Made by a program: the position numbers and the translations under genes | In this document: positions 53,367-60,770 of the stretch, one piece after another | Position numbering within the stretch: the first letter of the stretch is position 1 | Layout: each line of letters begins with the position of its first letter | From: Trypanosoma brucei | Taxonomy: Eukaryota | Direction: 5' to 3' | Assembly (NCBI GenBank): GCA_000002445.1 | Contig: CP000068.1 | Location: forward strand, 256,001-320,000 | Length of the DNA stretch: 64,000 nucleotides | Notes under the pieces: generated by a model | Databases searched by the model: none | What the model was told of the DNA's origin: nothing | The model's input: only the letters and a program-made list of their open reading frames with translations

Positions 53367-56300
53367 ATGGTAGACGGGCGATCTTCTGCATCAATTGTTG
53401 CCGTTGATCCCGAAAGGGCTGCGCGTGAGCGCGACGCAGCAGCGCGTGCCCTTCTTCAAGACAGTCCGCTACACACGACCATGCAATATGCAACGTCTGG
53501 TCTTGAGCTTACCGTTCCCTACGCACTTAAGGTGGTTGCCAGTGCTGACACCTTCGATCGCGCTAAGGAGGTTGCCGATGAGGTGCTACGCTGCGCATGG
53601 CAACTCGCCGACACCGTGTTGAACAGTTTCAACCCGAACAGTGAGGTTTCACTCGTGGGTCGCCTGCCTGTGGGGCAGAAGCACCAAATGTCTGCTCCAC
53701 TCAAGCGTGTGATGGCATGCTGCCAGCGTGTGTATAACTCATCGGCTGGATGTTTTGATCCCTCCACAGCACCCGTCGCAAAGGCGCTGCGTGAGATTGC
53801 ACTGGGGAAGGAGCGGAACAATGCTTGTCTGGAGGCACTTACTCAAGCGTGTACGCTTCCCAACAGTTTTGTGATCGATTTCGAAGCTGGAACTATCAGC
53901 CGTAAGCACGAGCATGCGTCTCTGGACCTAGGTGGGGTTAGCAAAGGTTATATCGTTGATTATGTCATTGATAATATCAATGCTGCTGGATTTCAAAACG
54001 TTTTTTTTGACTGGGGTGGAGACTGCCGTGCGAGTGGTATGAACGCGCGCAATACCCCGTGGGTTGTTGGTATAACTCGCCCTCCGTCCCTTGATATGCT
54101 CCGCAACCCGCCAAAGGAAGCGTCGTATATCAGCGTTATCTCTCTCGACAACGAGGCCCTTGCCACGAGTGGCGATTATGAAAACTTAATATACACCGCT
54201 GATGATAAACCCCTTACCTGCACTTATGACTGGAAGGCGAAGGAACTGATGAAACCTTCTCAGTCCAATATCGCGCAGGTATCGGTTAAATGTTATAGCG
54301 CCATGTACGCTGACGCGCTTGCGACTGCGTGTTTCATAAAGCGGGATCCCGCGAAGGTTCGACAGCTGCTGGACGGTTGGCGTTACGTGCGTGATACAGT
54401 GAGAGATTACAGGGTCTACGTTCGTGAAAATGAGCGAGTAGCGAAGATGTTTGAAATCGCCACAGAGGATGCGGAAATGAGGAAGAGGCGGATCAGCAAC
54501 ACACTTCCCGCTCGTGTCATTGTGGTGGGCGGTGGTCTCGCGGGTTTGTCCGCGGCCATCGAAGCTGCAGGATGCGGTGCTCAGGTTGTGCTTATGGAGA
54601 AGGAGGCGAAGCTCGGAGGCAACAGCGCCAAGGCGACATCTGGTATCAACGGATGGGGCACACGTGCTCAGGCGAAGGCAAGCATTGTGGATGGTGGGAA
54701 ATACTTCGAGCGTGACACATACAAGTCTGGTATCGGGGGTAACACCGATCCTGCCCTTGTGAAGACACTTTCTATGAAAAGTGCTGACGCTATTGGGTGG
54801 CTGACCTCGTTGGGTGTACCGCTGACGGTATTGTCACAGCTTGGGGGTCACAGCCGCAAGCGCACACATCGGGCACCGGATAAGAAAGATGGTACACCTC
54901 TACCTATCGGATTTACAATCATGAAAACCCTCGAGGATCACGTGCGTGGTAACCTTTCTGGCCGCATCACCATAATGGAAAACTGCAGTGTAACGTCGTT
55001 GCTCAGTGAGACGAAGGAACGGCCAGATGGCACTAAACAGATACGAGTTACTGGTGTGGAGTTCACGCAGGCTGGCAGTGGGAAGACGACCATACTTGCA
55101 GATGCTGTCATCCTTGCCACTGGTGGATTTTCTAACGACAAAACTGCAGACTCCCTGCTTCGTGAGCACGCCCCGCACTTGGTCAACTTCCCTACGACGA
55201 ATGGCCCGTGGGCGACAGGTGATGGCGTGAAACTTGCACAGCGACTTGGCGCTCAACTGGTGGATATGGACAAGGTCCAGTTGCATCCGACAGGCCTCAT
55301 CAACCCGAAGGATCCAGCGAACCCTACAAAGTTCCTTGGACCTGAGGCGCTACGTGGATCCGGTGGCGTTTTGTTAAACAAGCAAGGCAAGCGCTTCGTT
55401 AATGAACTTGACCTCCGTTCTGTGGTATCGAAAGCCATCATGGAACAGGGTGCGGAATATCCTGGATCGGGTGGTAGCATGTTCGCCTACTGTGTGTTGA
55501 ATGCTGCGGCGCAGAAGCTCTTTGGTGTCAGCTCACACGAGTTCTACTGGAAGAAGATGGGTCTCTTCGTGAAGGCTGACACCATGAGGGACCTCGCTGC
55601 ACTCATTGGGTGCCCAGTGGAATCTGTGCAGCAGACGCTGGAGGAGTACGAGCGGCTCTCCACATCACAGCGTTCCTGCCCCATCACGCGCAAGAGCGTC
55701 TATCCGTGCGTGCTCGGCACTAAGGGCCCCTACTACGTCGCCTTCGTGACACCTTCGATTCACTACACAATGGGTGGATGTCTCATCTCGCCTTCTGCTG
55801 AAATACAAATGAAGAACACATCATCACGCGCTCCACTGAGTCACAGCAACCCAATCCTCGGGTTATTTGGTGCCGGTGAGGTAACGGGTGGTGTGCACGG
55901 TGGGAACCGGTTGGGCGGCAATTCGCTGCTTGAGTGCGTCGTGTTTGGGAGAATTGCGGGTGATCGGGCCTCGACCATCCTTCAGAGGAAGTCCTCAGCA
56001 CTTTCCTTCAAGGTGTGGACGACCGTGGTGCTGCGTGAAGTACGCGAAGGTGGTGTGTACGGTGCTGGGTCCCGCGTGCTTCGCTTTAATTTACCCGGGG
56101 CGCTGCAACGGTCTGGTCTGAGCCTCGGCCAATTTATCGCAATTCGTGGTGATTGGGACGGTCAGCAGTTGATCGGTTATTACAGTCCCATCACGCTGCC
56201 AGATGATCTTGGCATGATCGATATACTCGCCCGCAGTGATAAGGGGACGCTGAGGGAGTGGATTTCCGCTCTGGAGCCGGGTGACGCTGTGGAGATGAAG

Positions 56301-60770: not shown

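Follow-up and report, generated by a model that had tools for sequence, protein, structure and literature searches.

Domain-limited concerted evolution of the catalytic core of the tandem fumarate reductase genes FRDg and FRDm2 in Trypanosoma

In Trypanosoma brucei, gene conversion between tandem genes is known from the phosphoglycerate kinase (PGK) A/B/C array, where it acts between genes whose isoenzymes are cytosolic or glycosomal (Le Blancq et al. 1988, as summarized by Jackson 2007, PMC1855330). Chimeric copies occur in 21 of 47 T. brucei tandem arrays (Jackson 2007, PMC1855330), which indicates that segmental conversion is common in this genome. Here, we study a tandem pair of fumarate reductase (FRD) genes, FRDg (Tb927.5.930) and FRDm2 (Tb927.5.940), in a stretch of 64,000 nucleotides of T. 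brucei DNA (contig CP000068.1, positions 256,001 to 320,000 of the forward strand; hereafter the window). The pair has been described before: Wargnies et al. (2021, J Biol Chem 296:100548, PMC8065229) reported tandem FRDg and FRDm2 genes whose central 1450-bp FRD domains are 100% identical, and showed by Southern blots and PCR that these repeats recombine to give a ∼4.1-kb deletion and a chimeric gene, FRDg-m2. The deletion was selected in PEPCK-null cells and detected at a low level in the wild type, and the documented products are the deletion together with a circle (PMC8065229). The chimera, which differs from FRDg only by its FRDm2 C-terminal domain, is cytosolic and devoid of NADH-FRD activity, which implicates that domain; the authors concluded that FRDm2 is probably no longer active as an FRD and noted that its expression has so far escaped detection (PMC8065229). 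Both the identity of the two domains and the question of what the FRDm2 reductase domain can still do are thus already published for T. brucei.

What we add concerns the origin and the breadth of this identity. Our best explanation, to which we give a probability of roughly 0.8, is that FRDg and FRDm2 are ancient tandem paralogues whose shared core has been repeatedly homogenized by non-crossover gene conversion, mediated by homologous recombination between direct repeats. The term "gene conversion" has 0 occurrences in PMC8065229, which likewise does not treat independent homogenization with conserved edges in other Trypanosoma species. In its main text, the study of T. brucei tandem arrays by Jackson (2007, PMC1855330) makes no mention of FRD, and a literature search linking trypanosome fumarate reductase to gene conversion or to concerted evolution gave nothing relevant, with Coustou et al. 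2005, the first description of FRDm2, lying outside its reach. Genus-wide, domain-limited concerted evolution of the FRD core appears not to have been spelled out in the searchable literature, and the gene-conversion reading, which we did not find in the papers searched, is strongly supported here.

The repeat block and its edges

The two genes and the two copies of the repeat lie in the window as follows.

53367..56795, + strand: coding sequence of FRDg, glycosomal NADH-dependent fumarate reductase, 1142 amino acids plus stop, with its ATG at 53367
54511..55960, + strand: repeat copy 1, the FAD-binding fumarate reductase domain of FRDg (residues 385-868 of the open reading frame), exactly identical to copy 2
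56796..58136, + strand: FRDg-FRDm2 intergenic spacer, unique sequence
58137..60770, + strand: coding sequence of FRDm2, 877 amino acids plus stop
58567..60016, + strand: repeat copy 2, the FAD-binding fumarate reductase domain of FRDm2 (residues 144-627)

Base-by-base comparison within the window confirmed that the identical block is real and correctly located: 54511-55960 and 58567-60016 form a direct repeat of 1,450 bp with 0 mismatches and an offset of 4,056 bp (Wargnies et al. give 4,074 bp for the theoretical deleted fragment; PMC8065229). The block sits in frame within two same-strand open reading frames, 53358/53367-56795 and 58137-60770, the first of which begins mechanically at a TTG at 53358, ahead of the FRDg ATG. 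An earlier note on this DNA, made from the sequence alone, had placed the block at 54512-55960 and 58568-60016; its ends stand, whereas both starts were one base too high. By comparison of translations, the FRDg product is 100% identical to XP_844767.1 and the FRDm2 product is identical to XP_844768.1, both from T. b. brucei TREU927. As the note had also proposed, the block corresponds to the FAD-binding catalytic domain (Pfam FAD_binding_2, residues 387-857, E = 1.5e-92), the central one of the three modules of FRDg—ApbE-like, FAD-binding fumarate reductase and cytochrome b5 reductase-like—for which Pfam also gave ApbE (E = 1.1e-43), FAD_binding_6 (E = 2.9e-9) and NAD_binding_1 (E = 2e-17).

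The edges of the block are abrupt. Ungapped identity drops from 100% to about 25%, the random level, within the next 50-nucleotide (nt) window on both sides, and a sensitive blastn comparison of the flanks of both copies found no similarity beyond scraps of 38-43 nt, the scrap 3' of the block being the region of the GVAPM motif. Inside the block, there is no difference of any kind between the copies, synonymous or nonsynonymous. In the C-terminal part adjoining the core, the codon-aligned genes share 46% nt identity (∼372 mismatches in 690 nt), and simple arithmetic excludes chance: the probability that all of these mismatches would miss the adjoining 1,450 nt is about 1e-180. The 143-residue N-terminal region of FRDm2 is unrelated to the FRDg N terminus, with no similarity found when the two were compared. 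The C-terminal domains of the two proteins share 32% amino acid identity over about 250 residues (BLASTP E = 1e-31). The earlier statement that everything outside the block has diverged completely is thus accurate for the DNA but not for the C-terminal proteins, and of the N-terminal and C-terminal domains described as unrelated, only the N termini are truly so; the C-terminal domains are old, diverged homologues. It is this passage from a core with 100% nt identity to a C-terminal domain with 32% amino acid identity, within one homologous gene pair, that calls for an explanation.

Cores and flanking domains across trypanosomatids

A single genome cannot separate recent duplication from conversion, and a wider comparison is informative in this respect. 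Orthologues of FRDg, FRDm2 and FRDm1 were recovered from many trypanosomatids in a protein search. We compared the genomic loci of T. vivax, T. cruzi, T. melophagium and Leishmania panamensis, whereas T. congolense and T. conorhini were compared as proteins. The order rhodanese gene, FRDg, FRDm2 is found in all four of these genomic loci. In the Trypanosoma species with compared loci, the FRDg/FRDm2 tracts, with synonymous divergence (dS) between the two copies, are as follows.

T. brucei: 1,450 bp, 0 mismatches, core dS 0
T. vivax: 1,427 bp, 1 mismatch, core dS 0.008
T. cruzi: 1,472 bp, 20 mismatches, core dS 0.043
T. melophagium: 1,457 bp, 3 mismatches, core dS 0

Identity within the tract is therefore 98.6-100% within each species, and the tract ends coincide closely, falling at T. 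brucei FRDg residues 385-389 on the 5' side and 864-876 on the 3' side (a spread of 4 and 12 codons, respectively). Between species, the same core has diverged by 27-30% at the nt level, with a proportion of synonymous differences (pS) of 0.67-0.81 and a dS above 1.7 or saturated. At the protein level, the FRDg and FRDm2 cores of T. brucei, T. vivax and T. cruzi are 98.8-100% identical within species and 75-81% identical between species, and in a neighbor-joining tree computed with our own implementation the two cores pair by species in these three, with 100% bootstrap support. The C-terminal domains show the opposite grouping, by gene: nonsynonymous divergence (dN) amounts to 0.10-0.18 between orthologues of FRDg and to 0.36-0.63 between those of FRDm2, and it lies at 0.73-0.88 for any FRDg-FRDm2 pair, whether taken within or between species. 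Paralogues of one species are thus closer to each other than orthologues inside the tract, where dS is near zero, whereas outside its abrupt edges the divergence is old and orthologous. The T. congolense and T. conorhini proteins have the same switch, with the same 3' edge directly after FGRIAG, and the T. conorhini core retains an internal unconverted patch that makes it a mosaic. The comparison that the earlier note had suggested, with T. congolense and T. vivax among the orthologues, therefore supports its proposal of gene conversion confined to the catalytic core, which draws on the absence of core differences, the pairing of cores by species and the orthology of the C-terminal domains. 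From these sequence comparisons, the FRDg/FRDm2 duplication predates the radiation of Trypanosoma, and the same copying seems to have taken place in at least six trypanosome species.

These data also decide between conversion and a more recent origin of FRDm2, or of its core alone, in T. brucei, with the FRDg catalytic domain duplicated into another gene and no exchange continuing since then. FRDm2 is syntenic in the four other genomic loci, its C-terminal domain groups with its orthologues in other species and stands far apart from the FRDg one, and every species carries its own near-identical pair. A recent origin is thereby refuted, and we give it hardly any weight. Even less credible is extreme purifying selection on the catalytic domain, at the protein or RNA level, in the absence of DNA exchange. 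The core is indeed the most conserved part of the protein, with a between-species dN of 0.12-0.16, but synonymous sites that are identical within species and saturated between them refute this idea as well. Moreover, the same domain does diverge elsewhere: in the Leishmaniinae, the FRDg cores and the FRDm2 cores each have a clade of their own (96% and 97% support) and the paralogues differ at 17-31% of amino acids, which indicates that homogenization is specific to lineages and not a property of the protein. On this evidence, homogenization of the cores has been independent and recent in each Trypanosoma lineage, and in the Leishmaniinae it has largely ceased.

L. panamensis is a partial exception among the Leishmaniinae, with a 903-bp 3' tract in which FRDg and the FRDm2-type gene are 98.5% identical. 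At this locus (CP009403.2; positions 10001-20510 of our local extract L004), FRDg is followed by a 514-amino-acid FRDm2-type gene, of whose core only the 3' 903 bp are near-identical to FRDg, and then by three FAD_binding_2 genes of equal length (543 amino acids). Multicopy FRD is known in the Viannia subgenus, with an estimated 16 haploid copies (PMC4338418).

The conservation of the edges lends itself to a simple mechanism. Conversion between the FRDg and FRDm2 direct repeats, which lie 4,056 bp apart, would homogenize the FAD-binding domain. The 5' edge would then be the end of homology, as FRDm2 has no counterpart of the FRDg ApbE domain or linker, and the 3' edge would lie where the cytochrome b5 reductase-like domains have become too diverged (46% nt identity) for strand exchange. 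Since homologous recombination in T. brucei is strictly length-dependent and impeded by base mismatches (PMC1904282), such edges would maintain themselves: the diverged flank would bar conversion from re-entering, and each edge would be reinforced at a domain border. In this mechanism, the homogenizing events would be non-crossover conversions, the usual donor would be FRDg, and mismatch rejection rather than selection would fix the 3' edge.

Strains, assemblies and the mode of exchange

Within T. brucei, the comparison of strains provides a finer view. Three core sites (866, 1153 and 1184, of which two are third codon positions) set the window apart from T. b. equiperdum and T. b. gambiense in every copy, and variants at the strain level that are common to both paralogues point to exchange within T. 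brucei's own history. Other isolates carry four copy-specific sites within 23 bp (core 405-427), corresponding to A135 and V137 in FRDm2 and G142 in FRDg, at which both copies in the window are outgroup-like (T, M, D). Similarly, AAX20163 and AAX20164, independent cDNA/gene sequences from other strains, differ between the copies at 3 of 482 core residues. The perfect identity of the cores is thus the state of TREU927 and not universal in T. brucei. The earlier note had called the cores perfectly homogenized, which holds for TREU927 but not for the strains that keep the four copy-specific sites, and had called the conversion ongoing, for which the three strain differences present in both copies speak, on few sites and imperfect assemblies.

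The assemblies themselves require attention at this locus. In T. b. gambiense DAL972 (FN554968.1), two annotated "chimeras" are reciprocal in structure: CBH10991 joins the FRDg N terminus, the core and the FRDm2 C terminus (1115 amino acids; local extract L005:10001-13348), and CBH11512 joins the FRDm2 N terminus, the core and the FRDg C terminus (904 amino acids; L006:9391-13581). We considered natural crossover products as the origin of these genes and rejected them in favor of a collapsed-repeat misassembly, because CBH11512 lies on a 4.2-kb contig, binned between 100-N gaps at the pseudochromosome's end, that corresponds exactly to a single repeat unit in circular permutation. In T. b. equiperdum (CM010676.1), a 100-N gap lies 228 bp into the FRDm2 core and is followed by a redundant, restarted contig (L008:14484-14583 and L007:1-12436), in which two extra units of FRDm2 N terminus, core and FRDg C terminus, uncalled as genes, precede the true FRDm2. 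These extra units are either a real expansion by unequal crossing-over or an assembly artifact; we regard this assembly as unreliable for copy number and used it for variant states only. The (AT)7 microsatellite at 57570-57583 in the intergenic spacer varies in length among T. brucei strains and is the breakpoint both of strain-to-window alignments and of the DAL972 loop contig.

Such repeat-induced errors—the collapse to one chimeric gene plus a binned loop contig in DAL972, the break in T. b. equiperdum—lend some plausibility to the idea that the identity in the reference is itself produced by a collapsed or cross-polished repeat. This is, however, very improbable, if somewhat less so than a recent origin of FRDm2: the restriction map derived from strain 927 matched the Southern blots of parental DNA, and the size of the experimental deletion fits recombination between two 1450-bp repeats (PMC8065229). 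In addition, the window holds both copies with distinct flanks, and the independently obtained AAX20163 and AAX20164 differ from each other at only 3 core residues.

A more serious competitor, although still an unlikely one, is that the cores were homogenized by cycles of unequal crossing-over, with expansion and contraction of the array, instead of by non-crossover conversion. Here, a sister-chromatid exchange within the core would give FRDg, a unit of FRDm2 N terminus, core and FRDg C terminus, and FRDm2, and a later core-to-core deletion would restore two genes, their cores now mixed or identical. A crossover-type deletion in the repeat is experimentally documented (PMC8065229), and the T. 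b. equiperdum contig, with its two extra units between FRDg-type and FRDm2-type ends, has the structure expected of such a product. These units may nevertheless be an artifact of the N gap in the repeat and of the redundant restarted contig, all four intact Trypanosoma loci have exactly two genes in the same order, and a deletion to one gene is irreversible, with loss of the FRDg C terminus and its type 1 peroxisomal targeting signal (PTS1) as well as of the FRDm2 N terminus. The internal patch in T. conorhini and the 23-bp patch in the T. brucei strains fit short conversion tracts better.

Several points weigh against non-crossover conversion as the explanation, or against the strength of its support. 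(i) No conversion event has been directly observed, and the products documented at the locus are a deletion with a circle rather than non-crossover transfers; the strain variants common to both copies are indirect evidence. (ii) The strain-level argument rests on few sites and imperfect assemblies, because the collapse of the DAL972 repeat makes the assignment of variants to copies unreliable and the T. b. equiperdum assembly has a break within the repeat. (iii) There is no consistent signature of GC-biased conversion across the four Trypanosoma loci, since the GC content at third codon positions (GC3) is clearly raised only in the T. vivax core (0.66-0.67, compared to 0.44-0.49 in its flanks; L001:11156-12582 and 14517-15943); T. 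cruzi has a less marked contrast, T. brucei and T. melophagium have almost none, and the T. vivax difference may be a trace of GC-biased conversion. (iv) Short-read polishing of long-read assemblies can falsely homogenize near-identical repeats and so exaggerate identity within a species, yet it cannot create the nt divergence of 27-30% seen between species.

Flanking modules, wider locus and comparable systems

The modules that do not take part in the exchange are listed below; the motifs are read from the translation.

53574..54362, + strand: ApbE-like flavin transferase domain of FRDg (Pfam PF02424, E = 1.1e-43), with no counterpart in FRDm2
56070..56711, + strand: cytochrome b5 reductase-like module of FRDg (Pfam FAD_binding_6 at 56070-56312, NAD_binding_1 at 56382-56711)
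56391-56420, + strand: GGTGVAPMLQ of FRDg, intact
56679-56696, + strand: CGPPVM of FRDg
56784..56792, + strand: SKI tripeptide, PTS1-type glycosomal signal of FRDg
58437..58499, + strand: hydrophobic segment YYSLLAVLLVVTFIKTASAML of the FRDm2 N-terminal region (Kyte-Doolittle 19-residue maximum 2.07)
60018..60767, + strand: divergent cytochrome b5 reductase-like domain of FRDm2, with no CGPPxM and no PTS1
60417-60443, + strand: RDGVAPMVQ of FRDm2, in place of GGTGVAPMLQ

FRDg is as the earlier note had described it, with an ApbE-like domain (E = 1e-43), GGTGVAPMLQ and a C-terminal SKI. Its reductase module matches the NADH-cytochrome b5 reductase structure PDB 2eix (E = 3.8e-37), with GGTGxxPM and CGPPxM kept. 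An SK[IM] terminus is present in all FRDg orthologues aligned, and glycosomal localization of FRDg has been reported (PMC8065229).

FRDm2, directly 3' of FRDg, consists of the FRD domain and a divergent cytochrome b5 reductase-like domain, and the features that the note had ascribed to it—no ApbE, a hydrophobic N-terminal segment, RDGVAPMVQ and no PTS1, the protein ending in VTL—were all recovered. In T. brucei, T. congolense, T. vivax (Y486 annotation) and T. melophagium, the FRDm2 core is preceded, at a distance of 30-45 residues, by a transmembrane-like hydrophobic segment, and T. cruzi FRDm2 has a comparable one if an unannotated upstream in-frame ATG is used (coordinates in the compared loci, L002:9878-10000 and L001:14274-14468). 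The segment's position is conserved but its sequence is not, and annotated start codons vary widely among species.

The C-terminal domain of FRDm2 is homologous to the NADH-cytochrome b5 reductase (ferredoxin-NADP+ reductase-like, FNR-like) family: it matches Pfam NAD_binding_1 with 32.3 bits (cutoff 22), with no Pfam match to FAD_binding_6, and PDB 2eix with E = 5.5e-9, TRDG standing opposite GGTG and FASATE opposite CGPPMM. We aligned the C-terminal domains of seven FRDm2 and six FRDg proteins, with a human CYB5R3 row as a guide only. The note had asked whether FRDm2 can still bind NADH, and careful alignment found no intact GxGxxP NADH-binding motif in any FRDm2 orthologue aligned. At the GGTG position, T. 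brucei FRDm2 has TRDGVAP, and those of T. congolense, T. vivax, T. cruzi, T. melophagium, T. conorhini and T. rangeli have T[VHS][NSR]G. At the CGPPxM position, T. brucei has FASATE and the other species have at best CGA[ST].E, so that PPxM is lost in all aligned FRDm2 orthologues while CG is kept in some. Because all seven lack the first two glycines (T-x-x-G), the degeneracy of the NADH motif is ancient and stable and not the result of recent decay. The domain nevertheless evolves well below the synonymous rate.

This constraint allows us to speculate that homogenization is not neutral. FRDm2 would be a functional, genus-wide enzyme with an N-terminal hydrophobic anchor of conserved position and an ancient non-NADH "pseudo-reductase" module under constraint (dN of 0.36-0.63 against saturated dS). 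Its core would have been kept intact through the history of Trypanosoma by copying from a strongly selected FRDg, and selection for two different solutions to electron input and targeting would keep the edges of the tract at the domain borders. We consider this proposal doubtful, albeit less so than unequal crossing-over; if true, FRDm2 would use a different electron donor or act in a life-cycle stage so far unexamined.

Upstream of FRDg, the window contains a gene for a rhodanese-domain protein and a three-copy STT3 (oligosaccharyltransferase) array on the + strand (41063-43489, 44363-46849 and 47663-50149), with a period of 3.3 kb. Judged from strain-locus cross-matches, these copies are about 94-97% identical to each other, and this array may also be partly homogenized.

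The FRD repeat has practical consequences. As a genuine tandem repeat, it breaks assemblies, as the false chimeric genes of DAL972 and the scaffold break in T. b. equiperdum illustrate, and read mapping, RNA interference, antibody and proteomic assays aimed at the central domain cannot separate FRDg from FRDm2. It also demonstrably serves as a platform for recombination, the deletion product of which is selected for in PEPCK-null cells (PMC8065229). The present work adds that one internal domain has stayed near-identical in at least six Trypanosoma species while its flanking domains have been separate since before the radiation of the genus. The locus thus illustrates domain-limited concerted evolution in a clean, natural form, and the same result speaks against FRDm2, though undetected, being a pseudogene in decay. 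The current view of trypanosome genome dynamics is unchanged by this, as segmental conversion in tandem arrays is well established and the FRD core is an ordinary instance of segmental concerted evolution.

Two other T. brucei loci invite comparison. The tandem aquaglyceroporin genes AQP2 and AQP3, a likeness drawn by Wargnies et al. (PMC8065229), are also tandem paralogues whose shared sequence gives rise to chimeric AQP2/3 genes in drug-resistant lines under selection. As described there, however, AQP2 and AQP3 have an overall identity of about 80%, with short identical stretches of about 80 bp, and have no perfectly homogenized block of 1.45 kb. The other is the PGK array, as far as the summary in Jackson 2007 describes it: in both systems, tandem paralogues encode differently targeted isoenzymes, and segmental conversion produces mosaic genes in which the parts responsible for targeting remain distinct. 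The FRD pair differs from PGK in that the converted tract is a whole internal domain, with non-exchanging modules on both sides, and in that the same tract is found in at least six species.

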